A stretch of DNA of 64,000 nucleotides from a virus. The notes under the pieces were generated by a model. It made no database searches. It was not told where the DNA came from and saw only the letters and a program-made list of their open reading frames with translations. The position numbers and the translations under genes are program-made. The DNA is taken from IMG/VR virus record IMGVR_UViG_3300044726_000013, positions 1 to 64,000 of that record; one strand, written 5' to 3'. This document shows positions 17,364-64,000 of this stretch, in pieces (positions within the stretch are counted from its first letter, which is position 1; each line of letters starts with the position of its first letter).

Positions 17364-17777
17364 ATGGCTGTAACGCGTAAACGGATTGATGAGAATGCCA
17401 TCATCACCGTACTGGCTGAAGACAACCCCAAGCGTGAGGGCTCTGCCGCCCGCGCCCGGTTTGACCTGTACCGTGATGGCATGACCGTCAGGGAGGCCAA
17501 GGCCAATGGCCTGTGGGCCACTGACATTGCCTATGACAGCGACCCCGGCCGCAACTTCATCAGGCTGACAACGGCTGACGGTGAGGACGCCACCCCGGCA
17601 CCCAAGGCCAAGAAGGCCAAGAGCGCCAAGAAGGTGGCCAAGAAGGTGGCCAAGAAGGTGGCCAAGAAGGTGGCCAAAAAGGCCGCCAAGAAGCGGGTCA
17701 AAAAGCAACCCGAGCCTGAGGTGGCAGTTGACCCTGAGGCTGAGGGAACTGAGACTGACGCCATGGCCGCTGAGTAA
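17364..17777 (+). CDS. Histone H1-like basic protein with N-terminal NPKxxGS domain
   Basis: NPKREGS...YRDGMTV domain, AKKV repeats, acidic tail; AAGGAAG RBS. Confidence 0.8.
   Translation: MAVTRKRIDENAIITVLAEDNPKREGSAARARFDLYRDGMTVREAKANGLWATDIAYDSDPGRNFIRLTTADGEDATPAPKAKKAKSAKKVAKKVAKKVAKKVAKKAAKKRVKKQPEPEVAVDPEAEGTETDAMAAE
17625..17672 (+). repeat. 12-bp tandem repeat GCCAAGAAGGTG x4 (AKKV)
   Basis: Four perfect copies followed by two degenerate ones. Confidence 0.9.
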
Positions 17778-17806
17778 AGCGGCGGCAACCGGGGGAGCCC
17801 TGAGGC

Positions 17807-18649
17807 ATGCGCGTTGAAGACATCTGGGTGTTCGCCCAAAAGCGGCACTACATCTACCTGAGACGCACAGCCGGGGCACCCCCGGAAACGTGGACTGATG
17901 ACCCCATTCTGAAGACCTACCGCTTCTGCAACATGTACCGTGAACTTGACACCGTGACCGATTGGTTGCGGGTCAACTGGCGTGAGCCGCACGCTGACCA
18001 CCCTGACCTGTGGCACGCCTTTGTGGTGGCCCGGCACATCAACAACGTGCCCATGCTGACTGCGCTGGGCGGCATCACGCTGCCGTGGGACCCCGGCCAT
18101 TTCATTGACGTGGGCATGGCCCGCAAGCAGGCTGGTGAGCGCGTCTGGTCTGCCGCCTACATCATTGGCACCCGCACGCCCGGTGACAAGTGCATCTACA
18201 TTGCCGATAACGTGCTGACGCCCATGTGGCGCAAGCGTGACAAGATCAGGCCGCAACAGGGTGACACGCTGACCAGTTGGCACATGCAGCTTGGCCTATG
18301 GTTCGGCATGGCCAGCTTCATGGCGGCGCAGGTGATTGCGGATATCAAGCACGCCACCCCGGCGCTGAAGAACGCTGGTGACTGGCACACCTTCTGCGCC
18401 AGCGGGCCGGGCAGCCGCCGTGGGCTCAACCGCATCTTTGAGCGTGACAAGAATGCGCCTTGGCGTGAAGATGACTTCAGGCTGAAGCTGCTGAGCCTGA
18501 GGCAGGAACTGGCACCCATGTTTGCCGCCAGCGGCTGGGCTATACCTGACGCGCAAGACGTGCAGAACATGCTGTGTGAGTTTGACAAGTACGAGCGCAC
18601 CCGGCTGGGTGAGGGCAAACCCAAGCAACTGTTCAGAGGTGGATCATGA
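17807..18649 (+). CDS. aGPT-Pplase clade 1 (HhH-glycosylase-like helical protein of thymine hypermodification systems)
   Basis: WTDDPIL..YRFCN.YRE.D, F.A.QV..D, GPGS.RGL and D.QN.LCEFDKY.R motifs. Confidence 0.85.
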   Translation: MRVEDIWVFAQKRHYIYLRRTAGAPPETWTDDPILKTYRFCNMYRELDTVTDWLRVNWREPHADHPDLWHAFVVARHINNVPMLTALGGITLPWDPGHFIDVGMARKQAGERVWSAAYIIGTRTPGDKCIYIADNVLTPMWRKRDKIRPQQGDTLTSWHMQLGLWFGMASFMAAQVIADIKHATPALKNAGDWHTFCASGPGSRRGLNRIFERDKNAPWREDDFRLKLLSLRQELAPMFAASGWAIPDAQDVQNMLCEFDKYERTRLGEGKPKQLFRGGS

Positions 18650-18713
18650 CCCGCAGCAACACCACATGGCACGCACACAAGCTGTTCAAGCGTCGGTACA
18701 AGAAAAGGCCCAA

Positions 18714-18869
18714 GTGATTTTGCCCAAGTACGACTGGCACAGCGCAGATGATGATTATGAGCCGTTGCCCGTGCCGGGCATGGGTGCGTTCTGGTTTGGC
18801 GCGCTGGTGGGCGCGCTGATTGAGGCTGGGCTGATACTGGTATTCGCTTTCATCTTCTGGGTGCTGTGA
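18714..18869 (+). CDS. Small membrane protein
   Basis: GTG start overlapping the stop of a 23-aa ORF; C-terminal TM helix. Confidence 0.45.
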   Translation: MILPKYDWHSADDDYEPLPVPGMGAFWFGALVGALIEAGLILVFAFIFWVL

Positions 18870-18955
18870 TGAATATGACGCCTGAGCGGTTGGGTGCCTA
18901 TCTGGTGGCGGTGGTGGTGGTGCTGGCATTGCTGGTGTGGTTTGGAGTGATCTGA
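18869..18955 (+). CDS. Small membrane peptide
   Basis: MNMTPERLGAYLVAVVVVLALLVWFGVI*, coupled to both neighbours. Confidence 0.45.
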   Translation: MNMTPERLGAYLVAVVVVLALLVWFGVI

Positions 18956-19155
18956 TGATGCCTGAGCGGTTGACGGATTGGTTTGACTGGCCCGGTGGCC
19001 CGGTGCCGCCCATGCCACCTGAGACGGCGGTGGTGGTGAAGTTCCGTGACGGGCTTGAGGGCCGGGCGCGCAAGGTCAAGAGCCTGCGGTGGGATCACGT
19101 CAATAGCCCTGATGACGTGGTGGCCTACCGCTACTGGGTGAGGGTTGATGGCTGA
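18955..19155 (+). CDS. Hypothetical protein
   Basis: W.GGP.P...V.VKFRDG...W.H...D.VAYR motif. Confidence 0.65.
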   Translation: MMPERLTDWFDWPGGPVPPMPPETAVVVKFRDGLEGRARKVKSLRWDHVNSPDDVVAYRYWVRVDG

Positions 19156-19378
19156 GGCTGAAGATGCTTCAGTGGAAGCGGCGCACACCAAGGCCACCCT
19201 TGAGGTGCTGAGGGCCGTCTGGACCATTGCCAAGCGGCATCAGGTCTGCGCCTCATGCCTGATGTTCAACGCCGCGTCACAGGTGAGGCTGGCGCTTGAT
19301 GATGGTGACATAGACCACGGGCCGCCTGACATTGACGAAGAGTTTGAAATAGTGGGTGAATTTCGTACTGACCACTAA
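19148..19378 (+). CDS. Hypothetical protein
   Basis: Coupled ORF with a CxxC motif. Confidence 0.55.
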   Translation: MAEAEDASVEAAHTKATLEVLRAVWTIAKRHQVCASCLMFNAASQVRLALDDGDIDHGPPDIDEEFEIVGEFRTDH

Positions 19379-19381
19379 ATA

Positions 19382-19415
19382 TCGCTTTACAATCAGGCAT
19401 GAAGGATGCTACTTA
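19382..19415 (+). promoter_or_regulatory. Repeated phage promoter
   Basis: TCGCTTTACA-N18-TACTTA. Confidence 0.7.
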
Positions 19416-19447
19416 GGGGACTCAACCAACCCCTCTGGAGCCAACCC

Positions 19448-19843
19448 ATGTTTGAACTTTTTAGCACTACCCTCTACCCCCACCTTGATGCCCGCACCGC
19501 CAACTGGGTCATCGCCTTTGATGAAGACGGGCGCTACTACGTAGACCACACGCCCGGCTCTGACTTCTGGGTGCCGGTGCCCTACGCCTACGCCACCCGT
19601 GAGGGCGCTGAGGCTGGCATTGCCGCCATCAAGGCGTGGGAGGCCCCTGTGGCCGCTGGTGAAGACGTGCTGAGCCTTGAGGCCCTGCGCGCCACGCCAG
19701 AGTGGGCGGCGCTGCTGACCCACGTGCACATGCGCCAAGCCATAGTGCCTGACCTGAGCGTGTTTGATTTCAACGTGGAAATCATGCCCGGTGCCTATGA
19801 CCACTACCGCGCCATCACCCTTGCTGGCGCGCAAGTGCTGTAA
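19448..19843 (+). CDS. Hypothetical protein
   Basis: CCTCTGGAG RBS motif then ATG at 19448. Confidence 0.65.
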   Translation: MFELFSTTLYPHLDARTANWVIAFDEDGRYYVDHTPGSDFWVPVPYAYATREGAEAGIAAIKAWEAPVAAGEDVLSLEALRATPEWAALLTHVHMRQAIVPDLSVFDFNVEIMPGAYDHYRAITLAGAQVL

Positions 19844-19876
19844 CCATCAACCCTGAAACCAAGAAGGACCAAGACC

Positions 19877-20149
19877 ATGAATAACGACCGCCGCAAGAGC
19901 ATCAGCAAGCTGCATGACGAACTTGACACGCTCAAGAGCGCGCTTGAGGATTTGCGTGACCAGATAGACACCCTGAAGGGTGAAGAGGAAGACGGCTTCA
20001 ACAACCTGCCTGAGGGCCTGCAACAGGCTGAGCGTGGGCAGGCCATGGAAGAGGCCACCAACCAGCTTCAGACCGCCTATGACGCCGCTGACAGCGCCGT
20101 CAGCAGTCTGGATGAGGCCCTGACCGCCCTTGATGACGCGGGGGTCTGA
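19877..20149 (+). CDS. Acidic coiled-coil hypothetical protein
   Basis: MN..RRK.I and N.PE.LQ..ERG motifs. Confidence 0.75.
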   Translation: MNNDRRKSISKLHDELDTLKSALEDLRDQIDTLKGEEEDGFNNLPEGLQQAERGQAMEEATNQLQTAYDAADSAVSSLDEALTALDDAGV

Positions 20150-20150
20150 G

Positions 20151-20435
20151 ATGCGCAACGCCATGATCAACCCTGTGCCGAACCTGAACGGCAACAGCAG
20201 TGAGAGCCTGCTGAAACAACTGGGTGGCGTGCTGACCGCCCTGCATGACCTTGAGAAGGCCATGCGGGGTGCCAGCGACTGCTACCACGGGCGCAACTTT
20301 CAGACCGTGAGGTTTAGCGTTGAGAGCCAACAGGCCGCCCAGCGGGCGTGGCATGAGCGCTTTGAGTGGCTGAGCCAGTTTGAGCGTGAGATTGAAGACA
20401 TGAGGCTGGCAATCCAGCAGAAAGAAGGCATGTAA
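20151..20435 (+). CDS. Hypothetical protein
   Basis: P..NLNG.S...L and HGRN.Q motifs. Confidence 0.65.
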   Translation: MRNAMINPVPNLNGNSSESLLKQLGGVLTALHDLEKAMRGASDCYHGRNFQTVRFSVESQQAAQRAWHERFEWLSQFEREIEDMRLAIQQKEGM

Positions 20436-20764
20436 TGTGGATTTGTTTCAACAACGCGTTTGTCAGCGTGGTACAAGACAGGGATAAGCCCGGCTACTTG
20501 CTGGTGCGCGCCCGGCGCAAGGCGCACCTGACCAAGCTGTTCCCCAAGGCCAAGATCACCGAGACACCCAAGCGTGACTACCGCTGGCGCGTCAGCGTGC
20601 CCCCCCTCTACATGGCCGATCTAGTGGCCAAGCACATCATAGGCATTGACTACGGCAACTTCAAAGACAGCGTGAAGGAAGACGCCCTGCATGACATGTA
20701 CAGCCTCTGGTGGGGTGACCATCACCGCTACCAGACCGACCGGCACCGGCAGAAGTGGGGGTGA
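20435..20764 (+). CDS. Hypothetical protein
   Basis: MWI....F.SVV, LLVRAR, DYRWR and IDY.NFK motifs. Confidence 0.75.
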   Translation: MWICFNNAFVSVVQDRDKPGYLLVRARRKAHLTKLFPKAKITETPKRDYRWRVSVPPLYMADLVAKHIIGIDYGNFKDSVKEDALHDMYSLWWGDHHRYQTDRHRQKWG

Positions 20765-20795
20765 GCGATTTTTCTTCAGCGGGGTCCATTTAGGT

Positions 20796-20827
20796 GCTTT
20801 ACAGGGCCGTCGCATATGGGCTATACG
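20796..20827 (+). promoter_or_regulatory. Repeated phage promoter
   Basis: GCTTTACA-N18-TATACG; upstream GGGTCCATTT..GG block shared with the 37.65-kb promoter. Confidence 0.7.
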
Positions 20828-20874
20828 AGATGTACCGGGGCGCTGGTGCCCCGGCACATTTTGAGGTTTTCACC

Positions 20875-22488
20875 ATGACCACCACCAAAGTTTTTACCCC
20901 GTCACCTGAACAGGCCGTGTTTCTTGACTGGATTTCTAACGGCAAGGGCTCTTGCGTGCTTGAGGCGGTTGCCGGTGCGGGCAAGACCACCACGCTGCTT
21001 GAAGGCGTCAAGCGCATGCAGGGTGAGGTTTTTCTGGGTGCCTACAACACCAAGATGGCTGCTGAGTTGAAGCAGAAGCTGGCGGCCATGGGCCTGCCCA
21101 ACAAGGGCGCTGACGGCAAGAACGCCGCCACGTTTCACTCTGCGGGCATGAGCGCCCTGCGCAGCGCCAACAAGGCCATTCAGGTCAATGACAAGAAGGT
21201 GCGTGATCTGGTTGACGGTCTGGTCAAGAGCCAGAGCGGCGTCTTTGCCGTGCGTGACGCGGCTGACGGTGAAATCACCGCCATCTGCCAGTTGGTCGGC
21301 CTTGCCAAGCAGACCGGCTTTGGCGTTGACAATCTGGTGCCCAACGTGAAGCCCGCCTACTGGGTTGAACTGATCAACCGCCATGACGTGGCTGACCGTC
21401 TGCCCGATGATTACAACGTGGCTGATCTGGTGACCACCGCTGAGCGGGTGCTGGCGCTGAGCAACGCTGACCGTGACACCATTGATTTTGATGACATGTG
21501 CTACCTGCCGCTGTTGCGCCGCCTGCGCTTTTGGCCCAAGGATTGGGTGCTGATTGATGAGGCGCAAGACACCAACGCCGTGCGCCGTGAGATTGCCCGC
21601 AAGATGCTGCGCCCGCATACCGGCCGCCTGATTGCCGTGGGTGATCCCCATCAGGCCATTTTTGGCTTCACGGGCGCTGATAACCAGAGCCTTGATCTGA
21701 TCCGCAAGCTGTTCAACGCCAGCACGCTGGCGCTGAGCGTTAGCTGGCGCTGCCCGTCTGCGGTGGTTGCGGTGGCGCGTGAGTACGTCAGCCACATTCA
21801 GCCCGCGCCTACCGCGCCTGAGGGTGTGGTGCGCTCTGCCACCTACCGCCAGATGGTTGACACCATTCAGCCCGGTCAGGCGGTACTGTGCCGCACCAAT
21901 GCGCCGCTGATTGAATTGTGCTTCAGGTTGATCCGTGAAGGCAAGCCCGCCAAGATTGAGGGCCGGTCTATTGGTGACGGTCTGGTGGCGCTGGTTGGCC
22001 GCTGGAAGGTCAAGGGCCTTGATGCCTTTGAAGGCAAGCTGACCAAGTGGAACCTGCGTGAGACGGCCAAGCTGGCTGGCGCGCCCAAGGTTGATGAGGC
22101 CAAGATTGCCCGCCATGAAGACAAGTACGCCACCATTCTGGTGCTGCTTGAGCGTGCCCGTGAGCGTGGTTTGCAGACGGTGGCTGAGATGCAGGCCATG
22201 GTGCAGGGCATGTTCTCTGACACGGCGCTTGAAGGCCAGACGGCCAATCTGGTGGTGCTGTCTAGCGTGCACAAGAGCAAGGGGTTGGAGTGGCCGGTGG
22301 TGCACATTCTGGGCCGTGGTGACATCATGCCCAGCCCGCGCGCCAAGCAAGATTGGCAGATCGAGCAGGAAATCAACCTCTGCTACGTGGCGGTGACTAG
22401 GGCGCAAGAGGTGCTGGTTGACGTGCCCATGCCTACCCCGGAAGACCTGAAGCCCACCCAGAAGCCGGTTGAGGGGGTGGCGGCATGA
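20875..22488 (+). CDS. Second UvrD-like SF1 helicase
   Basis: AVAGAGKT, IDEAQD, VGDPHQAIFGF, SVHKSKGLEW and YVAVTRA motifs. Confidence 0.92.
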   Translation: MTTTKVFTPSPEQAVFLDWISNGKGSCVLEAVAGAGKTTTLLEGVKRMQGEVFLGAYNTKMAAELKQKLAAMGLPNKGADGKNAATFHSAGMSALRSANKAIQVNDKKVRDLVDGLVKSQSGVFAVRDAADGEITAICQLVGLAKQTGFGVDNLVPNVKPAYWVELINRHDVADRLPDDYNVADLVTTAERVLALSNADRDTIDFDDMCYLPLLRRLRFWPKDWVLIDEAQDTNAVRREIARKMLRPHTGRLIAVGDPHQAIFGFTGADNQSLDLIRKLFNASTLALSVSWRCPSAVVAVAREYVSHIQPAPTAPEGVVRSATYRQMVDTIQPGQAVLCRTNAPLIELCFRLIREGKPAKIEGRSIGDGLVALVGRWKVKGLDAFEGKLTKWNLRETAKLAGAPKVDEAKIARHEDKYATILVLLERARERGLQTVAEMQAMVQGMFSDTALEGQTANLVVLSSVHKSKGLEWPVVHILGRGDIMPSPRAKQDWQIEQEINLCYVAVTRAQEVLVDVPMPTPEDLKPTQKPVEGVAA

Positions 22489-22658
22489 AAAGCAACTTCA
22501 CCTACGCCCAGAGCCAGAGGATGACCACCGCTGAGGTGGTCATTCTGCTGACCGTCAGCTTTGGCTGCTGGTTTACCGATCACCGGGCGGCGGCCATTGT
22601 GTTCTTGGCTTTGGCGGCGCTGTCACTGAACTGCCATTTCAGGAGAACCTACAAATGA
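22485..22658 (+). CDS. Small membrane protein
   Basis: 57-aa ORF read manually, coupled to both neighbours, two hydrophobic stretches. Confidence 0.5.
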   Translation: MKSNFTYAQSQRMTTAEVVILLTVSFGCWFTDHRAAAIVFLALAALSLNCHFRRTYK

Positions 22659-24089: not shown

Positions 24090-24261
24090 GCGGCGGCGCG
24101 CTGAGCGGGCGGCGCACAAGTTCAGTGATGACATAGGCGGGCACGCCAGCAACTACCGCCAGACCGTGCCGCCCATGGTGCACACCAACATCAAGGATCA
24201 CAGTGATGTGCGTGACGCCACAACCGAAAAACCGCTGGCACCAAAACCTGACCGATGTTAG
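24058..24261 (+). CDS. Hypothetical protein
   Basis: 67-aa ORF filling the gap before the ino1 leader. Confidence 0.4.
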   Translation: MDPWFKLTTAERRRAERAAHKFSDDIGGHASNYRQTVPPMVHTNIKDHSDVRDATTEKPLAPKPDRC

Positions 24262-24312
24262 GTTCAGGGGTAGCAGGGCCTGTAGGGGTACGGGAGTAAC
24301 AGGCTCTGCAAC

Positions 24313-24356
24313 GGCGGCCCGTGGCATTGGCTGGTCACGGGCCGCCTGTTTATTTC
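24313..24356 (+). terminator. Terminator-like hairpin just upstream of the ino1 RBS
   Basis: GGCGGCCCGTGGC...GTCACGGGCCGCC followed by TGTTTATTTC. Confidence 0.55.
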
Positions 24357-24373
24357 AACACAGTGAGGGTTTC

Positions 24374-25456
24374 ATGAGGAAAATACGCGTGGCCATTGTG
24401 GGCGTGGGCAATTGCGCCAGCGCCCTGATCCAAGGGCTGGCTTACTACGGCCAGACATCTGACAACTACCCCAAGCCCGGCATGATCACACCCTTGCTGG
24501 GCGGCTACGGCCCGGCTGACATTGAGGTGGTCACCGCCTTTGATGTGGTAGACACCAAGGTGGGGTTGCCCATCAATCAGGCCATCTGGGCGCAACCCAA
24601 CAACACCACGGCAATAGTGGATAGCGTGCCTGAGTGCGGCAAGGTCTACCGTGGCCCCACGCTTGACGGTCTGGGCAAGTACCTGCGTGAGGTGGTGGGT
24701 GAAAGCACAGTAGAGCCGATTGACGTTGAAGACACGCTGGCGCTGCTGAATGTGGATGTTCTGGTCAGCTACCTGCCGGTGGGCTCTGATCTGGCGGCCC
24801 AGCACTATGCCGGGGCGGCGCTGCGCGCCAACACAGCATTCGTGAACTGCATGCCTGCGTTCATTGCCTCTGACCCTGAATGGGCCGCTGCCTTCAAGCG
24901 GGCGGGGGTGCCCATCATTGGGGATGACATCAAGTCACAGGTGGGGGCCACCATTGTGCACCGCACGCTGGTGCAGTTGCTGCGTGAGCGCGGCTATGTG
25001 CTGAGGCGCACCAGCCAGTTGAATGTGGGCGGCAATTCTGACTTCCTCAACATGCTTGAGCGCAGCCGCCTGACCAGCAAGAAGATCAGCAAGACGCGGG
25101 CCGTCACCAGCATCATGGGCGTGGAACTGCCTGCTGAAGACGTGCACATTGGCCCGTCTGACTATGTGCCGTGGCTGGGTGACACCAAGGTGGCGCACAT
25201 CAGGCTTGAGGCTGAGGGCTTTGGTGGCGCACCGTTGACCATGGACCTGAAGCTTGAGGTGGTTGACAGCCCCAACAGCGCGGGCGTGGTGATGGACGCC
25301 ATACGCTGCGCCGCCGTGGCGCAGGACCGTGGGCAGGGCGGGCCGGTGGCGGCAGCCTGCGCTTGGTACATGAAAAGCCCGCCCGAACAGTGGGATGATA
25401 GCGTGGCCAGTGATCTGCTTGATGAATGGCTGAGAGGGGATGATCTGACATGGTGA
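24374..25456 (+). CDS. ino1: myo-inositol-1-phosphate synthase (inositol-3-phosphate synthase)
   Basis: GVGNCAS Rossmann motif, YLPVGS, GDDIKSQVGAT, QLNVGGN.DFLNM, SKKISKT, HIGPSDYVPWL and DSPNSAG; 360 aa; GAGGG RBS. Confidence 0.95.
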   Translation: MRKIRVAIVGVGNCASALIQGLAYYGQTSDNYPKPGMITPLLGGYGPADIEVVTAFDVVDTKVGLPINQAIWAQPNNTTAIVDSVPECGKVYRGPTLDGLGKYLREVVGESTVEPIDVEDTLALLNVDVLVSYLPVGSDLAAQHYAGAALRANTAFVNCMPAFIASDPEWAAAFKRAGVPIIGDDIKSQVGATIVHRTLVQLLRERGYVLRRTSQLNVGGNSDFLNMLERSRLTSKKISKTRAVTSIMGVELPAEDVHIGPSDYVPWLGDTKVAHIRLEAEGFGGAPLTMDLKLEVVDSPNSAGVVMDAIRCAAVAQDRGQGGPVAAACAWYMKSPPEQWDDSVASDLLDEWLRGDDLTW

Positions 25457-26496
25457 GAGAATTTTCAACTGAGCAACACCGCAAGCACTTTGCTGAGTTC
25501 TGTAGGTGGGAGTTGGCCAGCGGTGGCCCAGACCCGCAACTGGCCATGGTGGCTTATATGGCCCGCCAGCAAGAGGTGAATGAAGAGGAGCAGTTGTGGC
25601 GGGCCTTCTGCTACATTGGCCCCTACAACGTGCCCTACGGTGAAGTGCTGTGGCGGCACTGGTCATACCGCGATCTGGCTGATGACGAGAAGGGCATCAT
25701 AAAGGCGGGCCTGCGCAACTGGCTTGATGCCGCTTTCAACGCTGACAAGATCACCACCCGCATTGAGCGGCGCACGGTGCGGCGGGCCGATTGGCTGCAT
25801 GAGTACCTGTTGGGTGCCCGGCGCTTCATCTGGCATGACTGGCCTGAGTTGGTGGATGAGTGCCTGAGCCTTCACCCGCACCAAGCCTATGAGGTGGCAT
25901 GGCAGAAGGTCACGGCGCTGCCGCGCATAGGCCGCTACGCGGCAATCAAGCTGATTGAGTACCTGAGGCGCTATCAGGGGCTGATGGTCCTCACGCCCGA
26001 TATACGGCCCAAAGACGCATGGTCACCGCGCCATACGCTGGGCTACATCTGGCCAGACCGCAACCTTGGCAACCGTGACAACAGCCCTGAGGCGCTGACG
26101 GTGGCCAGCCAAGCCTGCATTGACGCGCTGACGCTGCTGAAGCATGACTACGATGTCACCATAGACATGTTTCAGCTTCAGGTGCTGCTGTGTGAGTACC
26201 GTGAAAGCTGGGAAAAGGGCAAGCAATACCCCGGCCGCTCACTAGATAGCGAACTGGGCTACGCCCGCAAGGCTGAACTTGACTGGGCCTACAACAGCGG
26301 CATCTGGCGCGCCCGGCGTGACCTGTTCCCGCTACAGCATCTGGGTGAGCATCAGGGCTGGGAGGGGCCGCGCAAGCCGGTGGCCGGGTGCCTGCGTGAC
26401 CACGGCTACACGTGGACTGACCTGAAGTATGACTTCATCAAAACCACTGATATGGATGAGCCTGTGATGTGGAGAGGGTCTGATGGCAGCCGGTGA
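25450..26496 (+). CDS. aGPT-Pplase clade 2-like / amino acid:DNA transferase-family protein (divergent)
   Basis: GGPDP N-terminus, ERR..R, HhH-like LPRIGRYAAIKLIEYL, LLCEY...GKQYPGRSLD; same cluster as the 5-hmU kinase. Confidence 0.72.
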   Translation: MVREFSTEQHRKHFAEFCRWELASGGPDPQLAMVAYMARQQEVNEEEQLWRAFCYIGPYNVPYGEVLWRHWSYRDLADDEKGIIKAGLRNWLDAAFNADKITTRIERRTVRRADWLHEYLLGARRFIWHDWPELVDECLSLHPHQAYEVAWQKVTALPRIGRYAAIKLIEYLRRYQGLMVLTPDIRPKDAWSPRHTLGYIWPDRNLGNRDNSPEALTVASQACIDALTLLKHDYDVTIDMFQLQVLLCEYRESWEKGKQYPGRSLDSELGYARKAELDWAYNSGIWRARRDLFPLQHLGEHQGWEGPRKPVAGCLRDHGYTWTDLKYDFIKTTDMDEPVMWRGSDGSR

Positions 26497-26677
26497 CCGG
26501 GTTGAGGGTGAGACGTTGCACACGTACCTTGGGGATGGCGTCTACGCCAGCTTTGACGGCTACCAGATATGGCTGCGGGCCGACCGCTTTGGCATAGAGC
26601 AAGCCGTGGCCGTTGAGCCTGAGGTGATGGCCCAACTGGTGATCTACGCCGCCAAGGTCTTTGGGGAAAAGCCATGA
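26483..26677 (+). CDS. Small hypothetical protein
   Basis: YLGDGVYASFDGYQIWL motif. Confidence 0.7.
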   Translation: MAAGDRVEGETLHTYLGDGVYASFDGYQIWLRADRFGIEQAVAVEPEVMAQLVIYAAKVFGEKP

Positions 26678-27111
26678 TGAAAATCTACCGCGTGGCAACA
26701 GACCTGATGCTGTCTGCCCGCACCCACACCCTGACCGATGACCAGTGCGTTGATCTGGTCAACAGGCATGAACTCACCGCCATCATCAACCTGTGGCACA
26801 CGCCGGATCAGCGCGTGGCCAAGATGGTTGACTGGTATGAGTGCGTGCCGCTGCCTGACGGCCAGATCAGTGAGCGCATGGCCCACTGCCTTGAAACCTT
26901 GGCAGATGACGTGGCCGCTGAGGTGCGCAGGGGCGGCAGGGTGCTGATGCATTGTTGGGGCGGGCGCAACCGCTCAGGTTTGCTGGCGGCCTTGGTGCTG
27001 ACCCGGCTGGAGCGTATAACCGGCAGCCAAGCCTATGACCGCGTGCGGGCCGTGCGGCGCGGCGCGCTGGTCAACCTGCACTTTGCCAACTACCTGAAGA
27101 GGCGGCCATGA
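26674..27111 (+). CDS. CX5R (dual-specificity/PTP-like) phosphatase
   Basis: VLMHCWGGRNRSGL active-site loop; PLPD acid loop. Confidence 0.9.
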   Translation: MMKIYRVATDLMLSARTHTLTDDQCVDLVNRHELTAIINLWHTPDQRVAKMVDWYECVPLPDGQISERMAHCLETLADDVAAEVRRGGRVLMHCWGGRNRSGLLAALVLTRLERITGSQAYDRVRAVRRGALVNLHFANYLKRRP

Positions 27112-27521
27112 GCATTCCTGAAAAGCTACGTCAGGCATATCATAACGATCTGACTGACGTGCCCTTGCTGCTTGAGGCGGCTGATGAAATTGACAAGTGG
27201 GACCGGCGTTGGTGCGTGGCTGTTAAGACGATAGCTGAGCGTGATGAAACCATCGAGCGGCTGACGGCAGAGCGCAACAAGCTGGAAGACATGTGGCGTG
27301 AGCGCCCCACCGGCACCCGCAACCAGCGTGAGCGCCAGCTTACCAAGCGGTTGGAAGACGCTGAGGCATTAGCTTTCACGCTGGCAACGCAGGTCAGGGC
27401 GGCTGAGGCCGTACTGGTGACCATTGAGAGCCGGGCCAGCGGCTACACCCATGGGGATGAACGGGTTGAAGCCACGTTCAGGGGCATAGCGGAACTTGCC
27501 CGTAAGAAGGCGGCGTCATGA
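27108..27521 (+). CDS. Coiled-coil hypothetical protein
   Basis: EAADEI..L motif and heptad pattern; coupled ORF. Confidence 0.65.
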   Translation: MSIPEKLRQAYHNDLTDVPLLLEAADEIDKWDRRWCVAVKTIAERDETIERLTAERNKLEDMWRERPTGTRNQRERQLTKRLEDAEALAFTLATQVRAAEAVLVTIESRASGYTHGDERVEATFRGIAELARKKAAS

Positions 27522-28081
27522 GCATTGTTCTGATCAGGGGCACGGGCGGCAGCGGCAAGACCTACATTGCCGAGCAGGTGATCAAGGCGCTGGGCGGCCT
27601 GAGCGCGGCCACCACGTTCACCATGGGGCCCAAAGACAAGACGGCGGGCTACATCTGGCGGGCTCCCCCGGTTACCATCATGGGGCGCTACGGCAACGCC
27701 TGCGGCGGCTGTGACACCATTGGCGGCTGGCCGGGGGGTCCAGATGATATCTGCAAGCGCATTGCCGTTGAGGCGTCACTGGGCCAGAGCGTGCTGTGGG
27801 AGGGCATTGCCGTCAGCAGCTACGGCCAGAAGCGGTTGCTGCTGATGCCGGGCCTGACGGTCATTCAGCTTGACACTTCACTTGAGGAATGCGTTAAGTC
27901 AATCTATGCGCGGCGCGCGGCCAAGGGCAATGCAAAGCCGCTTGACCTGTACCACACCGAGCGTAAGCATAAGGCGCTGTTTACGACCACGCGCAGCAAC
28001 GCGGCGGCGGGCATTGCCACTGAGACGCACAGCCGTGAAACTGCATTGCCGCGCGTCATGGAATTACTTGGTTTAGTTTAG
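27518..28081 (+). CDS. P-loop kinase, putative 5-hydroxymethyluracil DNA kinase
   Basis: IRGTGGSGKT Walker A, G.Y..ACGGCDTI, V.WEG and L..SLEEC...I..RR motifs. Confidence 0.8.
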   Translation: MSIVLIRGTGGSGKTYIAEQVIKALGGLSAATTFTMGPKDKTAGYIWRAPPVTIMGRYGNACGGCDTIGGWPGGPDDICKRIAVEASLGQSVLWEGIAVSSYGQKRLLLMPGLTVIQLDTSLEECVKSIYARRAAKGNAKPLDLYHTERKHKALFTTTRSNAAAGIATETHSRETALPRVMELLGLV

Positions 28082-34505: not shown

Positions 34506-34532
34506 AAGAGGGCCCCCGCAGGGGCCCCTTTT
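34506..34532. terminator. Bidirectional intrinsic terminator
   Basis: A-tract, GGGCCCC-CGCA-GGGGCCC, T-tract between convergent genes. Confidence 0.8.
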
Positions 34533-35212
34533 CACTTGATGCTGATGTGGCCGTGGCGGGTGTCCCACCTGAAGTCTTCACGGGTCAGGCCCGCCAAGAT
34601 GGCATCACCCACGGTCATGCCGTCAACGTAGCGGGCGTAGCGCTTGAAGGCCAAGCTGCCCTTGCGCTTGGGGTTGGCCACGATCAGCGTGATCACCTGC
34701 CCGTCAGCGTACTCAGGGCGCGGGCCACGGTGGGCGCTGGCCTTGACGGTGACCTTGACCGCCTTGGCCTTGACCGGCTTGGCGGCTGGCGCGGCCTTGG
34801 CGGCCTTCTCAGGCTTGGCGTTGGCCATGGCCTTCTTGAACTGGGCCACCAGACCGGCACCGCCCTTGGCCACGCCCTTGGCGGCCTTCTTGGTGGTCAC
34901 GGCCTTGAACTTGACCACGTTGCCGCTCAGGCTGTCAGCCAGCCCCTCAAGGCCGTTGCCCGTGCCCGCTACCGGCGCTTCAACGCCATGGGCGGCAAGG
35001 CCAGCCATGTCAGCGTTGAGCCCGGCAAGGCCGTTGCGCACCAGCTTGGTGCCGTCAAGCACCAGAGAATGGTCAGCCATGATCTTGGTCAGGCGGGCAA
35101 CGCCCGTGGGCTTGTCATGGAAGCCCTTGATTTCTTTCAGCGGCAGCTTGAGTTCAGACACCGCGCGGTTGTAGGCCACGTTAAGCTGGGCCAGAGAAAG
35201 TTCGGTAAGCAT
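34532..35212 (-). CDS. Lys/Ala-rich protein with C-terminal NPKxxGS domain
   Basis: NPKRKGS...YVDGMTV...DFRWD domain after an H1-like linker; own promoter. Confidence 0.8.
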   Translation of the reverse strand: MLTELSLAQLNVAYNRAVSELKLPLKEIKGFHDKPTGVARLTKIMADHSLVLDGTKLVRNGLAGLNADMAGLAAHGVEAPVAGTGNGLEGLADSLSGNVVKFKAVTTKKAAKGVAKGGAGLVAQFKKAMANAKPEKAAKAAPAAKPVKAKAVKVTVKASAHRGPRPEYADGQVITLIVANPKRKGSLAFKRYARYVDGMTVGDAILAGLTREDFRWDTRHGHISIK

Positions 35213-35272
35213 GGTTTTCACCCTATGGTTTTGTGGGCCGCAGCCCGGTTGGTGCTCAATGGCACAAACTCC

Positions 35273-43414: not shown

Positions 43415-43912
43415 CTATGCGGGCCGCCATGTCAGGTGCTGACGTGCGCCGTCCCACCGCAAGTCTTCACGGGTAATGCCACGGGCCAGCAACTCGGCCT
43501 CGGTAAGGCCGTCTTGGTAGAGCGCGTAGCGGCCATACGCCTTGCTGCCCTTCTGCTTGGGGTTGGGCACATGGCTGACCAGCACGCGGGCGGCCTTGGC
43601 GGCCCGTGCAACGGGGCTGCGTGGGCTGGGCTGGGCTGGCTTGGGCGGCTGCGGCTTGGGGTAGGGCTTGGGCTTCAGTTGGGCGCTGTCAGGGCACTTG
43701 GTCAGAACACCCTTCAGGCAGGCGGTGGCGATCATGGCGCGCAGATCAGTGCTGCGCTCAAGGCGTGACAGGGCGGCCTGTGGCGGCAGCTTGTGCTGAA
43801 TGAGGATCACATCAAGCGGCACGCCGGGCGTGGGCAGGGGCAGTTGCAGGGCCTTGCAGACGGCCAGTTGGTCAGCCGGGCACAGGCGCGTAAATGCGGC
43901 AGCGTCAATCAT
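43415..43912 (-). CDS. Protein with Pro-rich linker and C-terminal NPKxxGS domain
   Basis: NPKQKGS...YQDGLT...DLRWD. Confidence 0.75.
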   Translation of the reverse strand: MIDAAAFTRLCPADQLAVCKALQLPLPTPGVPLDVILIQHKLPPQAALSRLERSTDLRAMIATACLKGVLTKCPDSAQLKPKPYPKPQPPKPAQPSPRSPVARAAKAARVLVSHVPNPKQKGSKAYGRYALYQDGLTEAELLARGITREDLRWDGARQHLTWRPA

Positions 43913-44005: not shown

Positions 44006-44932
44006 TCACGCCAGCCGCAGCTTGGTGGCGCTGGTGCCCACGGCGGTGCCAAGGTGCACCTTGTTGCCCGCAGCCATGCCCGCCTCACGCGCGCTCTGGC
44101 TGCCGCTGGTGGCCACGCGGGTGTTGCTGGCCTTGCGCAGCTTGCGGTCACCCCATTGCTCGGCAACCACGGCGTTCTTGACCACCATCAGGGCGGTGCC
44201 GCTGGTGGTGACCAGCGTCTCCGTATGCCTTGCCTTCAGCATTTCCCTGATACGGGTGCTGACGCGCGCGGTGTAGGCCAGCATGAAATCATTGCGGGTG
44301 CGGCGGTTGTTGACCCAGTTGGTGGCCTTGAAGGCGGCATAGCCACGGTCACCGGCACCCTCAATGACGCGCATCAGGTAGGTGGCCACCTCAACGTCAG
44401 CCGGGAGGCCGAAGAAGATGATCTGCCCGGTGCCGGTCTTGTGGTAGACAATGCAGGCGCAGTAATCGGCAATGGCCTTGGCGCACCACTGGCTGGGGTG
44501 CGGCCGGGCGCGGTGCGCGCCGTGAATGCCGCTTTCACACTTTTCGGCTTTGATCTCAGTCTCAGATTGTTCAATGCCGTACTTGTCCATAAGCTGCCCG
44601 GCCTTTTCAGCGGCGGCCATGGCCTCTTCCTCGGTGCAGCCGTTTTCAACGGTCTTGCTCAGCAGGGCGCGTATGCGGTTGACGGCGGCGCTGCGGTTGG
44701 CGGTGGGCGCGGCAGCGGTGGCGGCGCTGAAGGTGCTTTCACCGGCCGGTATGGCAATGAAGCCGCGCTTCTCATCCCAGTGCAGGTCTTCACGCGTGCC
44801 ACCGGCCCGCAGGTACTCACCGGGCGTCATGCCGTCACGGTAGAGGCTGAAGCGGTAGTGCGCCTTGCTGCCGGGCTTCTTGGGGTTGGGTACCAGCACG
44901 CGGATGCGCGCAACGGGTGATTTGAAAGACAT
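44006..44932 (-). CDS. NPKxxGS domain fused to DUF2786-like domain
   Basis: N-terminal NPKKPGS...YRDGMT...DLHWD; RIRALL.K....EEEA.AA..KA..LM.KY. Confidence 0.8.
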   Translation of the reverse strand: MSFKSPVARIRVLVPNPKKPGSKAHYRFSLYRDGMTPGEYLRAGGTREDLHWDEKRGFIAIPAGESTFSAATAAAPTANRSAAVNRIRALLSKTVENGCTEEEAMAAAEKAGQLMDKYGIEQSETEIKAEKCESGIHGAHRARPHPSQWCAKAIADYCACIVYHKTGTGQIIFFGLPADVEVATYLMRVIEGAGDRGYAAFKATNWVNNRRTRNDFMLAYTARVSTRIREMLKARHTETLVTTSGTALMVVKNAVVAEQWGDRKLRKASNTRVATSGSQSAREAGMAAGNKVHLGTAVGTSATKLRLA

Positions 44933-53171: not shown

Positions 53172-53177
53172 CACTAG

Positions 53178-59438: not shown

Positions 59439-59448
59439 GGGAACTGAC

Positions 59449-59769: not shown

Positions 59770-59772
59770 ACC

Positions 59773-60117
59773 ATGACAAGTCTTAATATCGTGCAGGCCG
59801 CTTCTGACCCTGACTTCTACACAAGGGTGAGTTTCCTTGCCGTGAAGACGGCGCAGAACGTGGCATCTGAAGACCCCGGCGCGGCCAATCACCTTGCCCG
59901 CGTGGACTATGCCAACCGGGTGTTCAGGGGCGATGACAATGCGGCGCTTCTGGCGCAGCACGTGGCCACCAACCCGGCCATAGGTGCGGCGCTTGAGGCC
60001 GGTGCCACCGTGCCAGACGGCGACATTGAGTTTGCGCTGGCCAGCATCTGGGATGCCCGCGCCACCGCCTTCTACGTGCCGCCACGCGAGCCGACACCCG
60101 CAGCCACCGCTGAGTAA
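59773..60117 (+). CDS. Hypothetical fibre-associated protein (paralog of 5195-5620)
   Basis: Near full-length similarity to 5195-5620. Confidence 0.7.
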   Translation: MTSLNIVQAASDPDFYTRVSFLAVKTAQNVASEDPGAANHLARVDYANRVFRGDDNAALLAQHVATNPAIGAALEAGATVPDGDIEFALASIWDARATAFYVPPREPTPAATAE

Positions 60118-60123
60118 ACTGCC

Positions 60124-62718
60124 ATGGCCAAGCGTCTGGGCAAGAAGCTGCATATGAGCCGTGGGGCAACCCACGCCCGCATGCAGTTTCAGGAAGCCAA
60201 GCACAAGCGTGATGTCAGCGGCAAGTTTGCTGACATGCCGGGCAGCGTTGTGCCGGGCCTTGACGGCAACGTTGCTGACATAGCGCCCGCAATGCAGCCA
60301 GCCACCAAGGCTGACTGGATGGCAGGTGCCAAGACCAGCAAGGTGACGGGTGATGACCTGATCAAGCTGCACGTCACCAGCAACCCCAAGAAGGCGGGCA
60401 GCGCGGCGGCTGAGCGCTTTGCCAAATACACCGACGGCATGAGCGTGGCTGACTACCGCAAGGCCGGGGGCACCGCTGAAGACTTGGCTTGGGACCGCAA
60501 GCGCGGCTTTGTCAGCTTTCACACGCCAGACACCTACCACAGCATCAGCACCAACGGGGCCTCCCCGGTCAGTCAGATCAACCACCAGACCGCCACTGGG
60601 CGGCTGGCCAACATCAAGGCGCAGGCTGAGGCCAAGGCAGGCGTGACCACTGAGGCGGTGAAGCCACCCCCACCTGACGTGCCCATGAAGGCGTCTGGTG
60701 AGCCGCCTGAGCCACCGCCGCCGCCCAAGCCGGTAGAAGCGGCCCCTAAACCCGCCGCTGCGGCCCCAGCCAGCCCCGCCAGCGCGTCTGCGGCCCCCAA
60801 GGCACCTGAGACACCCGCCGCGCCCAAACCCGCGCCCACGGGCACGCCTGAGGCCGCTGTGGTGGCCAAGCCGCCTGAGGTGGGCGTGGTTGAGCCTGCG
60901 GCAGCCCCCAAGATTGAGCCAAGCACCAAGGTTGGCTTCTACAAGAAGGGGGTGACGCCGGATGAGACAACCACGCTGAACGGCGTTGAGTTGAAGCCGT
61001 GGACCCCGCCCAAAGACAATGCGGGCTGGGCCAAGGTTGACGGGCAGAACCCAGATATCGGTGAGACACCGCTGAATGCCAAGGGCAAGCGGCCGGGCGC
61101 TGGCGTGCTGATCACTGAGCCTGACGGCAGGGTTTGGCTGGTCAAGCCCACCAAGGGTTATGGCGGCTATGAGTACACATTCCCCAAGGGTGGCCAAGAC
61201 CCCGGTGAGGGCCTGTCACTGCAAGCCACCGCCATCAAGGAAGCGTATGAAGAAAGCGGCCTGAAGGTGCGCATCACTGGCGTGGCCGGTGACTTTGAGG
61301 GTGACACCAGCGTGGCGCGCTACTACCACGCGGTGCGTGAGGACGGTAGGCCCGCAGATCATGGCTGGGAGAGTGAAGCCGTTGTGCTGGTGCCCAAGGA
61401 CCAGCTTGACCTGTACTTGAACAAGAGCCGTGACAAGAGCATTGCCACACAGCACCTGAAGCCTGAGCCCAAGCCCGCTGGCGCGCCGCCTGCCGCGCCT
61501 GCGCCCAAGCCTGCTGAAGGCCCAACCGTGGCACCCAGCGGTCTACCGCCGCAGATGCCCAATGACCACCGCTTCAAGATTGAAGACGTGGTGGACATGC
61601 CCGCCCACAAGATGGTTGATGAGGGTGACGCGGGTCTGGAGTGGGAGTACAAGAAAGAATATCACCAGTACGGTGGCGATAACTGGGTCAAGAGCGTGGG
61701 CGGCACCCGCATCACAGACCAAGCTGACTTCAACAAGAAGTATAAGGATGCCCCGCTCACTTATCTGACCAATGATCAATACGATAACCTTGGCTACACC
61801 AGCGTCAACACCAAGAAGTTGCCCACGTTCAACGAGATTGCGCCGGGCCTGATACAGCGCAACCGTGACCCCAAGGCTATCAGGGACCGCATGTTCAACG
61901 GTGTGACCACGCCGCCTATTGTGCTGAAGCACGGCAACACCTACCGCCTGATGGCAGGCCAGAGCCGCATTTGGACCGGCCTGTCTGCGGGCATCAGGGT
62001 GCCGGTCAAGGTCATAGACGTGACGCCCGGTGCAGCCAAGCCAGTGGTGGGCAAGGGCAAGTTCACTGAGGCTGACATTGTGGGTGACAAGGTAGTCACT
62101 TCAATGTTCAGGGAAAAATTCACCACCCGCATGAACAAGCTGCCTGAGAAGTTTGTCAGTGCGGCCATAAAGGATGGTAAGCCTCACCTCTACGGCAGCT
62201 ACAAAGGTGCCACAGACGCACCGCACATGAAGATGAGCGGCACGTCAAAGGCCCCGGTGGCTTATTATGCCATCAAGGAAAAGCACACAGCCTTCTTTGA
62301 AGACATGAACAGCAAGTCGGGCAAGGCTCTGAAGGGCAATGGCTACACTGACGCGGAGGTAGAGGAATATCACTTGGGCAACATTGCCCATGAACTGGGC
62401 CATCAAATGGATTATATCAACCGCACCAAGGTGCCGGGTAAATTTCAGATGACGGGTGGGTCAAAAGACCCTGAGTTCATGACCAAGGCTGAGAAGATAC
62501 GGAAGAGATATGTCACAACGCCCAACCAGACCGATCAAGAGAAGTGGGCCACCTATTTCACGTCTGATCAAGAGATGTGGGCGGCGGGCACCGAGGTGGT
62601 GATGATGGGCGGGCGCAGGGGCGTCAGCAGCAAGAACAGCTTGCTGGGCAAATTGATGCATGAAGAGGGCTTGGTTGATTGGATGACTGCCCATTACAAG
62701 AGTAGGGGTGCGCTGTGA
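60124..62718 (+). CDS. Polyvalent protein: KHKRD..GKF leader, NPKxxGS domain, NUDIX hydrolase, ParB-like domain, zincin metallopeptidase
   Basis: FPKGG...TAIKEAYEESG Nudix box; PPIVL....L.AG.SR; AHELGHQMD plus EMWA. Confidence 0.8.
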   Translation: MAKRLGKKLHMSRGATHARMQFQEAKHKRDVSGKFADMPGSVVPGLDGNVADIAPAMQPATKADWMAGAKTSKVTGDDLIKLHVTSNPKKAGSAAAERFAKYTDGMSVADYRKAGGTAEDLAWDRKRGFVSFHTPDTYHSISTNGASPVSQINHQTATGRLANIKAQAEAKAGVTTEAVKPPPPDVPMKASGEPPEPPPPPKPVEAAPKPAAAAPASPASASAAPKAPETPAAPKPAPTGTPEAAVVAKPPEVGVVEPAAAPKIEPSTKVGFYKKGVTPDETTTLNGVELKPWTPPKDNAGWAKVDGQNPDIGETPLNAKGKRPGAGVLITEPDGRVWLVKPTKGYGGYEYTFPKGGQDPGEGLSLQATAIKEAYEESGLKVRITGVAGDFEGDTSVARYYHAVREDGRPADHGWESEAVVLVPKDQLDLYLNKSRDKSIATQHLKPEPKPAGAPPAAPAPKPAEGPTVAPSGLPPQMPNDHRFKIEDVVDMPAHKMVDEGDAGLEWEYKKEYHQYGGDNWVKSVGGTRITDQADFNKKYKDAPLTYLTNDQYDNLGYTSVNTKKLPTFNEIAPGLIQRNRDPKAIRDRMFNGVTTPPIVLKHGNTYRLMAGQSRIWTGLSAGIRVPVKVIDVTPGAAKPVVGKGKFTEADIVGDKVVTSMFREKFTTRMNKLPEKFVSAAIKDGKPHLYGSYKGATDAPHMKMSGTSKAPVAYYAIKEKHTAFFEDMNSKSGKALKGNGYTDAEVEEYHLGNIAHELGHQMDYINRTKVPGKFQMTGGSKDPEFMTKAEKIRKRYVTTPNQTDQEKWATYFTSDQEMWAAGTEVVMMGGRRGVSSKNSLLGKLMHEEGLVDWMTAHYKSRGAL

Positions 62719-62945
62719 CAACGTTTGTGCATGTGATCAGCCTGACTGCAACGCTGTACCCGGTGCTGACCCAGAATGAAAACATTCTGGGCGACGGTGA
62801 GATGACGCGTGATGAATTGGAGGCCATGCTGCCTGAGGGTGAGCGGCTGAGTGAGGGGCATTACGAAATCAGTGATGACGGCGTGGCCCGGTGGGTGGGC
62901 TTTGATCTGCCGCCACCCGCTGATGAGGCGGATGAGGCGTTCTGA
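62715..62945 (+). CDS. Small acidic hypothetical protein
   Basis: Coupled to both neighbours. Confidence 0.5.
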   Translation: MTTFVHVISLTATLYPVLTQNENILGDGEMTRDELEAMLPEGERLSEGHYEISDDGVARWVGFDLPPPADEADEAF

Positions 62946-64000
62946 TGCCCGCTGGTCTGAAGCTGAAGACAGCTAAGATATCCAAGGGTGCCCACGGCAT
63001 CAAGATCAAGTGGGACATGAACAAGCACAAGCGTGACAGCTTGACTGGTCGGTTCACGTTCAAGCCCGGCACTGAAGAGTTCAAGTCTGAGCCGTTCGGC
63101 CCCGGCAAGACCGGCAACATCAAGGGCACAGATGTCATCAAGCTGCACGTCACCAGCAACCCAAAGAAGCCGGGTAGCAAGGCCAATACTGACTTTGAGA
63201 ATTACAAGGATGACATGACGGTTGCTGAGTTCAGGGCGGCAGTCGGCAGCAACGTCAAGGCCAATGAGCATCTGACCTATGACACCAAGAAGGGCTTCAT
63301 CACCATTCATGACCCGGCCACGCTGCCCGCCAAGCCGCTGGCCCAGCCTGAGCCGCCGCCCCCGCCCAAGCTGACCATGGCCGAGTATGCCATCACCAGC
63401 AAGACCAAGAACCTGCAACCGCACGACAAGATCAAATTGCTGGCGGGTGAGAACCCCAAGAAGGCGGGCAGCAAGTCTGCGGCCCTATTCTCAAACTATA
63501 AGGATGAGATGACCGTTGGTGAGTTCCACGCGGCCATTGGCAACAAGAAGGCCAGTCAGGAAACGTTGCTCTACGACCTCAAGAAAGGCTTCATCAGCGT
63601 GCACAACGGCGCTGATCTGGCTGACATGCAGAGCGGCAAGCTGAGCCCCGGCAAGCTGGCGGCGCACATGCAGACGGGTGACAAGGGCCTTGGCGTGGTC
63701 AGCAAGAACCCGTTCACCCCCGGCACCAAGAATTATCAGGACTTTGAAGACGCCGCCTTTGACCAAGGGCTGACCACGCAGGCCAAGGTGACAGCCAGCG
63801 TTGACCCGGCCACGGGTGCGCCCAAGCCCAAGTCACTGGCTGATCTGACAGATGATGACGTGGTGGTGAGCCAGTACGGCACTGAATACACCGCGTCGAT
63901 GATGAAGGCCAACACTGACCCACTCTTCAAGAAACAGGTGGATGACAGTCTGGCGTCTGGCAAATGGACCGTCAAGCCCAAGCCGCCTGCCCTTATGGAT
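62945..64000 (+). CDS. Second polyvalent-type protein, partial (runs off the window; absent from the ORF track)
   Basis: ATG overlaps the previous stop; open for 352 codons; KHKRDSLTGRF leader; two NPKxxGS domains plus a degenerate third (NPFTPGT). Confidence 0.8.
   Translation, partial: MPAGLKLKTAKISKGAHGIKIKWDMNKHKRDSLTGRFTFKPGTEEFKSEPFGPGKTGNIKGTDVIKLHVTSNPKKPGSKANTDFENYKDDMTVAEFRAAVGSNVKANEHLTYDTKKGFITIHDPATLPAKPLAQPEPPPPPKLTMAEYAITSKTKNLQPHDKIKLLAGENPKKAGSKSAALFSNYKDEMTVGEFHAAIGNKKASQETLLYDLKKGFISVHNGADLADMQSGKLSPGKLAAHMQTGDKGLGVVSKNPFTPGTKNYQDFEDAAFDQGLTTQAKVTASVDPATGAPKPKSLADLTDDDVVVSQYGTEYTASMMKANTDPLFKKQVDDSLASGKWTVKPKPPALMD

Follow-up and report, generated by a model that had tools for sequence, protein, structure and literature searches.

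What does a protein domain of about 58 amino acids do when a single phage genome carries it seven times, on proteins ranging from small early ones to large enzymes of the virion module? We addressed this question for a 64,000-nucleotide stretch of viral DNA (hereafter the window), which is the first 64 kb of the 79,594-bp IMG/VR record IMGVR_UViG_3300044726_000013, rated 97% complete. The domain, which we call the NPK domain, is a unit with the signature NPKxxGS…Y.DGMT…WD, and its copies in the window span 55-62 residues. We establish here the copies, the family to which they belong, their predicted fold, their old paralogy and their genomic linkage to thymidine hypermodification genes. We propose that NPK is a DNA-targeting module, a portable tether tied to thymidine hypermodification, and we put the chances for and against this reading at about even. 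The pathways of thymidine hypermodification have been worked out one enzyme at a time, and we know of no account of how phage proteins locate and handle the hypermodified DNA.

An initial annotation, made from the letters of the window, had described seven full copies of the domain, and translation of the open reading frames (ORFs) that it pointed to recovered all seven in the places where it had put them. They lie in six proteins, three of them encoded on the minus strand, which the annotation had left unmentioned. Each copy scored 89-109 bits against a profile made from the same seven copies, a measure that is partly circular. The copies, and one further stretch discussed below, are as follows:

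17391..17570, plus strand: NPK copy 1, 97.6 bits, in a small protein (ORF 17295-17777, likely ATG at 17364)
34535..34708, minus strand: NPK copy 2, 99.4 bits, C-terminal in a protein of ~226 amino acids (ORF 34532-35221)
43421..43597, minus strand: NPK copy 3, 98.1 bits, C-terminal in a 165-amino-acid protein (43415-43912)
44741..44917, minus strand: NPK copy 4, 103.7 bits, N-terminal in a 308-amino-acid protein (44006-44932)
60349..60531, plus strand: NPK copy 5, 109.3 bits, near the N-terminus of an 864-amino-acid multidomain protein (60124-62718)
63125..63319, plus strand: NPK copy 6, 104.5 bits, first of a tandem pair in a 969-amino-acid ADP-ribosyltransferase protein
63416..63613, plus strand: NPK copy 7, 96.7 bits, second of the tandem pair in the same 969-amino-acid protein
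63693..63775, plus strand: possible relic of a third copy, in which only the half made of the first strand, NP, xxG[ST] and helix 1 is recognisable; 1.1 bits

Eight positions are the same in all seven copies: N, P, K, G, S, Y, D and D. A degenerate DNA pattern for the motif gave three matches where 0.00 were expected (100 shuffles), and the profile made from the window's own copies found no further match in the six frames of the window or of the 79.6-kb genome. The annotation had also listed an eighth, degenerate copy at 63693-63775. As a full domain this stretch is not significant (i-Evalue 24); what survives of the claim is a possible half-domain relic, since the first ~23 residues are kept in orthologues and align weakly with the N-terminal half of NPK (hhalign: 23 columns, P = 8e-4, probability 24%).

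Next, we asked how far the domain extends beyond this genome. It had been described as belonging to no named family, and our searches agree: neither the six window proteins nor 117 relatives gave a match for NPK in Pfam, NCBIfam, PHROGs or the sequences of the PDB. The hidden Markov model (HMM) search that the annotation had called for retrieved a large family and matched no characterised one. Clustered at 50% identity, the metagenome members form 4,411 groups when the cut-off is E <= 1e-3, of which 1,389 remain when it is E <= 1e-10. Among the best 149 matches the domain is C-terminal in 94 of 167 instances; proteins that consist of the domain on its own also exist (58-62 amino acids), and the members found in named sources are all labelled hypothetical. 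The family is overwhelmingly viral. A strict DNA pattern found it in at least 118 viral contigs of IMG/VR, and the same pattern hit only 14 loci in 185,579 species genomes, all of them in metagenome-assembled genomes (MAGs). In the ESM Atlas, the neighbours of NPK are exclusively unnamed and mostly viral clusters, and one window copy searched with tblastn against 72,556 plasmids had no match. When three family members were compared by tblastn with 50,697 GenBank phage records, Alphaproteobacteria phage PhiJL001 alone was returned. This phage is the sole cultured carrier that we found, and it has one copy per genome compared with seven here. The protein in question, gp18 (UniProt Q5DN87), scores 60.9 bits against the NPK profile and is the one clear structural match in BFVD (Foldseek E 7e-6, TMq 0.82, 40% identity), although its record calls it merely 'gp18' and gives no product name.

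The surroundings of copy 1 link the domain to a particular pathway. Thirty base pairs downstream of the copy-1 gene begins a gene for the helical domain of a 5-hydroxymethyldeoxyuridine (5-hmdU) DNA kinase, and further genes expected of thymidine hypermodification lie in the same genome:

17807..18649, plus strand: stand-alone 5-hmdU DNA kinase helical-domain protein; PF18723 (HMUDK_hel), 124.8 bits, profile positions 4-278 of 281
27518-28081: P-loop kinase-like protein of 187 amino acids, with a GTGGSGKT P-loop
28277-29332: thymidylate-synthase-like gene; PF00303, 65.8 bits, an assignment at family level that does not distinguish hydroxymethylase from methylase

Measured against the published description of thymidine hypermodification systems (Lee et al., 2018, 2021), the sequence points to both a candidate deoxyuridine monophosphate (dUMP) hydroxymethylase of the thymidylate synthase family and a candidate 5-hmdU DNA kinase. 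The genome also encodes an HD nucleotidase, an inositol-1-phosphate synthase and a family A polymerase, and an aGPT-Pplase-type candidate at 25450-26496 had no Pfam match at E <= 1e-3. A complex prediction for the copy-1 protein with the PF18723 protein gave a score of 0.01, that is, no answer, and counts as evidence neither way.

The annotation had suggested looking for co-occurrence with hypermodification genes that act through 5-hydroxymethyluracil (5-hmU, or hmU), and the outcome was positive. In a sample of 29 NPK-bearing viral records of 35-111 kb, PF18723 was present in 24, among them 14 of 15 with a completeness of 90% or more, and a PF00303 gene in 27. For comparison, a published figure for thymidine hypermodification systems in viromes, given there as a lower bound, is 'at least one in 2000 phages' (PMC8989533). 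Moreover, one of the NPK paralogues adjoins the kinase-domain gene. A homologue of the kinase-domain protein was found in the flanks of 35 of the 118 viral loci that we fetched, and in 33 of these 35 it follows an NPK gene in the same orientation, 48-1,366 bp further downstream; where the gap measures ~1 kb it is occupied by an ORF that resembles a GT-A-type glycosyltransferase. The same order is found in PhiJL001, in which gp18 directly precedes gp19 (PF18723, 155 bits) and is followed, beyond gp19, by a glucosyltransferase-like gene and a dUMP-hydroxymethylase-like gene.

This arrangement is not the property of a single clade of phages. Relative to the terminase of the phage studied here, five records are 71-86% identical, eight are 41-51% identical and 15 of 28 have no match, and the kinase-domain proteins of the carriers are 29-92% identical. 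Three terminase-related GenBank phage records, taken as a control, have neither NPK nor PF18723. In four of the five PF18723-negative records of the sample, an NPK gene lies ~2 kb upstream of the thymidylate-synthase-like gene. One of them, L066, shows at 9251-14481 the order SNF2 helicase, 93-amino-acid NPK protein, 295-amino-acid protein of no recognised kind, P-loop kinase-like protein and thymidylate-synthase-like protein, and its operon may encode a variant thymidine-modification pathway. The 295-amino-acid protein was considered as a relative of PF18723 and set aside, as no relationship was detectable (hhalign probability 0.1%). L066 is a complete viral record of 111 kb with about 48% GC.

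The kinase-adjacent proteins come in three layouts. In the first, an N-terminal domain of ~140 amino acids and of no recognised kind precedes NPK; the N-terminal domain of copy-1 orthologues in sister phages is absent from the genome studied here. In the second, a Pyr_excise domain comes first, then a Lys/Ala linker and NPK, and the protein closes with a basic stretch and an acidic tip; in this lineage NPK is thus fused to a DNA glycosylase domain of the T4 endoV-like type (31.2 bits against a cut-off of 23). In the third, a Lys/Ala-rich segment precedes NPK and a tail follows it. The copy-1 protein of the window consists of the NPK domain and a KKVAKK-type, Lys/Ala-rich tail that is predicted to be disordered and ends in an acidic tip.

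To place the seven copies, we built a maximum-likelihood tree of 125 NPK domain segments. Copy 1 falls in the kinase-adjacent clade (support 97/85) and copies 5-7 in a clade of large proteins (99/96), while copies 4 (100/99), 2 (100/98) and 3 (100/97) each sit in an orthologue clade of their own. We could therefore reject a recent duplication within the genome as the source of the seven copies, since they occupy separate, supported clades with orthologues from other phages. This grouping indicates that NPK spread onto its different carriers long ago, and the tandem duplication that gave copies 6 and 7 is likewise old, because each of the two has orthologues of its own. Genomes with several copies are frequent: of 28 long viral records, half (14) have a single copy and the rest two to seven.

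We then turned to the predicted structure. Two AlphaFold2 models were computed from the alignments of different paralogues, one for copy 4 (39 sequences; mean predicted local distance difference test score, pLDDT, of 88.4 for the whole model) and the other for the copy-1 protein (14 sequences; pLDDT of 92-96 in the blocks of the domain and below 50 in the tail). Both show the same succession of a strand, the long NPKxxGS loop, helix 1, helix 2, a tight turn, helix 3 and a strand. The predicted three-helix core has a turn of 3-4 residues between the second and third helices, as in a helix-turn-helix, and in place of a two-strand hairpin the wing region has one short strand after helix 3, paired with the N-terminal strand. 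The alpha/beta fold proposed by the annotation thus agrees with the models, whose β-α-α-α-β arrangement is winged-helix-like and would be compatible with nucleic-acid binding. Winged-helix domains lead the lists of structural alignments (PriA WH, Fur, MarR, MecI, Z-alpha, MCM-WH and RRE). The best match is the WH domain of PriA (PDB 6dgd; Z 5.8, 65 residues aligned, root-mean-square deviation 2.7), other winged-helix domains reach Z 2.5-5, and the overall maximum of Z 5.9 is weak; a Foldseek search of the NPK model against the PDB returned nothing at E < 1. A winged-helix-like fold class is plausible for these models, and kinship is unsupported at Z ≤ 5.9. The annotation had further called the domain basic. 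This is true of the family, with a median net charge of +2 and an isoelectric point (pI) of about 9, and does not hold for each of the seven copies, which run from -2 to +5. The 40-residue flanks of the domain are net positive, and about one third of them contain more than 45% Lys, Ala and Pro.

NPK most likely binds DNA. The winged-helix-like fold of the models, the Lys/Ala-rich flanks, the glycosylase fusion and the operons of post-replicative DNA-acting enzymes in which the domain is found all point to this, and so does the known presence of DNA-binding domains in polyvalent phage proteins (Iyer et al., 2017, PMC5512222). The near-exclusive occurrence in phages of the hmU pathway further suggests that NPK is adapted to hmU-type DNA or needed in its making. 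In the mechanism that we propose, NPK would be a small, winged-helix-like DNA tether, shared by a broad range of phages whose thymidine is hypermodified via 5-hydroxymethyldeoxyuridine. Encoded at the start of the modification operon, the small kinase-adjacent paralogue with its disordered, Lys/Ala-rich tail would probably work on the substrate DNA: it might serve the post-replicative modification enzymes as a histone-like or loading factor, or else coat hmU-type DNA. The other paralogues would tether early proteins and two virion-module enzymes (NUDIX/HExxH and ADP-ribosyltransferase) that could travel with the phage DNA or act beside it.

A stronger version of this proposal makes NPK a dedicated reader of 5-hmU-derived thymidine, whether phosphorylated or hypermodified, and thereby a module for the recognition of 'self-DNA'. 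We advance it tentatively, with the chances leaning against it, and a preference of the domain for hmU-derived bases is speculative. If the reader role were true, the modification enzymes would be loaded onto nascent DNA, the ejected effectors and early proteins would be kept on phage DNA and off that of the host, and NPK would be the first portable domain in viruses that reads hypermodified thymine. If modified DNA were preferred, the domain could also find use as a reagent for detecting or enriching hmU-type bases.

Several results weigh against both the DNA tether and its tie to hypermodification. The converse of the linkage fails: most kinase-bearing viral records, all but about 10-30%, do without NPK. 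In a sample drawn by the kinase-domain protein, NPK was found within 3 kb in only 15 of 80 loci, and in 13 of 44 whole records there was an NPK match, just four of them strong; M6, PhiW-14 and ViI, model phages with hypermodified thymidine, do without the domain. Conversely, 12 of the 14 bacterial MAG genomes with NPK lack PF18723 (two have it). The viral sample itself was drawn with the strict DNA pattern, which fits 68% of the best-scoring family members, and the distant members lie outside it. On the structural side, the fold says little about function, because Z <= 5.9 is the range of common arrangements, and winged helices of the RRE and cullin types bind peptides or proteins. The domain is just mildly basic, copy 1 is even acidic (net -2, pI 4.9), and the putative recognition helix bears conserved acidic residues (..EDL.WD..).

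Some of these observations would suit a different explanation, namely a generic, non-specific DNA binder of the nucleoid-protein kind that travels with the replication and modification block by descent and mosaic exchange, so that the link to hypermodification would be historical. The kinase-adjacent paralogue and its neighbours do form a syntenic block able to move as a unit, the many kinase-bearing phages without the domain are easily accommodated, and the bacterial MAG copies without PF18723 lie beside an Eco57I-like methylase, an HNH nuclease or an integrase. However, the linkage persists down to kinase-domain identities of about 30% and across unrelated terminases, and it is seen again in the lineage whose operon has different parts. 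A generic binder would also be expected in many other types of phages, yet the three-query tblastn search hit one of 50,697 GenBank phage records. We consider this explanation doubtful, though a serious contender.

The structural matches raise another alternative, in which NPK would be a protein- or peptide-binding winged helix, similar to RRE or cullin WH-B, that docks its carriers onto one common partner of the phage or the host, for instance a modification enzyme, a part of the replisome, or a component of the capsid or portal used for packaging. RRE-type peptide-binding domains are among the best structural matches, the conservation of NPK is unusually high for a DNA binder and includes the acidic residues in helix 3, one module on seven carriers would suit a shared docking site, and some kinase-adjacent members end in a conserved acidic tip of the type common in protein-protein tails. 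The Lys/Ala-rich flanks, the fusion to a DNA glycosylase and the operons of DNA-acting enzymes nevertheless point to DNA, the domain also occurs as stand-alone proteins of 58-62 amino acids, and no candidate partner emerged; a docking role is unlikely in our view. Least probable is a sequence-specific transcription regulator, with the kinase-adjacent protein controlling the modification operon and the other copies acting as autoregulators, since the winged-helix-like predicted fold and the position of a small protein at the head of the operon are outweighed by fusions to virion-module enzymes and a glycosylase domain and by a predicted recognition helix that is near-invariant across thousands of clusters and seven paralogues of one genome, a misfit with diverse operator specificities.

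The DNA-targeting reading can be set beside known systems. With the winged helix-turn-helix domains (PriA 6dgd and Fur/MarR/MecI) the NPK models have in common the order strand, helix, helix, turn, helix, strand, but NPK has no sequence similarity to solved chains, its Z scores lie under the level of kinship, the second strand of its sheet comes from the N-terminus and not from a hairpin wing, and the NPKxxGS and Y.DGMT motifs are its own. The copy-1 protein resembles linker histones H1/H5 in its small winged-helix-like globule and disordered KKVAKK-type tail; it differs in the acidic tip of this tail, the other six copies have other partners, and none of the six proteins matched the linker histone family PF00538 in Pfam at E <= 1. 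SPO1 TF1 is a phage HU-type protein that prefers hmU-containing DNA, and it provides a precedent for a small phage DNA binder where thymine is replaced via the dUMP-hydroxymethylase route. TF1 has the HU/IHF fold, whereas NPK is a portable domain, reused in many proteins, with a different predicted fold, and the six NPK proteins had no Pfam match to HU/IHF (PF00216) at E <= 1. In kinetoplastids, the J-DNA-binding domain of JBP1 reads glucosyl-hmU, with a specificity that comes from a single acidic residue in a helix. It would be the functional analogue if NPK reads hmU-derived bases, and NPK keeps conserved Asp residues in its third helix; the JBP1 fold is a helical bouquet of a eukaryotic lineage, however, and we found no sequence or structural match between it and NPK. 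Finally, polyvalent proteins carry DNA-binding domains such as ArdC-N, MutS-I, FtsK-wHTH and Rho-N (Iyer et al., 2017, PMC5512222), and NPK is likewise a small module, presumed to bind DNA, that sits close to the N-terminus of large, multi-enzyme virion-module proteins. Unlike these domains, NPK also occurs in small early and replication-module proteins, and it matched no Pfam family tested, a set that should cover the families reported from polyvalent proteins.

What is new here is a large, virus-restricted domain family with a specific genomic association. In several phage lineages, among them that of PhiJL001, one of its paralogues is the first gene of the hypermodification operon, conserved yet overlooked, and the literature that we searched on hypermodification and on polyvalent proteins makes no mention of a conserved DNA-binding component of these operons. 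This raises the question of whether such phages encode a binder or reader of their own for modified DNA.

The carriers of the remaining copies support the description of NPK as a modular appendage on Lys/Ala- or Pro-rich linkers, and the contexts given by the initial annotation for copy 1 (tail), copy 2 (Lys/Ala linker) and copy 4 (DUF2786 fusion) hold on translation and in Pfam. In copy 2 a long Lys/Ala linker runs ahead of the domain, and the orthologue in L050 begins at the methionine of MLTEL. In other orthologues of the copy-2 clade (L120, L040 and L032), judged by eye, a DUF2786-like N-terminus stands in place of the MLTELSLAQL… segment; the partner domain appears to have been exchanged there and the NPK subfamily retained. 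Copy 3 is preceded by a Pro/Lys-rich linker. In the copy-4 protein, NPK and a linker are followed by DUF2786 (PF10979, 49.6 bits) and DUF7168 (PF23771, 66.4 bits), and the protein also matches phrog_421.

The two largest carriers are encoded in the virion module, after a gene for a tail fibre of 1,550 amino acids. The 864-amino-acid protein of copy 5 has a NUDIX domain (48.3 bits) and a HELGH motif. The 969-amino-acid protein of copies 6 and 7 spans 62945 to 65854 of the genome, beyond the end of the window, and carries an ADPrib_exo_Tox domain (35.7 bits) at residues 782-944; its copy 6 has a 4-residue insert between helices 2 and 3. With several unrelated domains on a large polypeptide in a virion-associated context, both fit the description of polyvalent proteins. 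Ahead of NPK they begin with a similar basic leader that contains KHKRD-x2-3-G(K/R)F (window 60124-60260 and 62945-63060), which may be a shared targeting or processing signal.

The module of the window that holds the modification genes also contains two separate genes for UvrD-like superfamily 1 helicases (15694-17280 and 20794-22488), one of them directly upstream of the copy-1 gene. A myo-inositol-1-phosphate synthase (120 bits) and a dual-specificity phosphatase-like protein are encoded amid the thymidine-modification genes (24203-25456 and 26674-27111). Among the viral loci, the ORF between the NPK and PF18723 genes in L089 (1357-2219), L079, L045 and L074 encodes a conserved protein of ~260 amino acids with PTYGR and DDDL motifs that looks like a GT-A-type glycosyltransferase; in this one lineage it is part of the putative hypermodification operon. 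In L042, L045, L048, L065, L079, L089 and L113 the kinase-adjacent protein ends, after a Lys-rich stretch, in a conserved acidic tip (…EETID or similar), and such tips recall the C-terminal interaction tails of single-strand-binding proteins.

In the bacterial MAGs, an Acidobacteriaceae contig has an NPK gene adjoining an HNH_2 endonuclease gene (L018:3693-5140), and a Binatia contig has one near an Eco57I-like methylase (L009:4011-7368). We dropped the idea that NPK and the HNH nuclease form a modification-dependent restriction system, as the HNH_2 neighbour of the Acidobacteria MAG could be found in none of three related genomes. In a Maritimibacter MAG (contig JAGRMO010000309.1, L008:1896-2945, minus strand) an NPK domain of 61.8 bits lies in frame within a biotin carboxylase (ATP-grasp)-like ORF, which gives the appearance of an insertion into a housekeeping gene.

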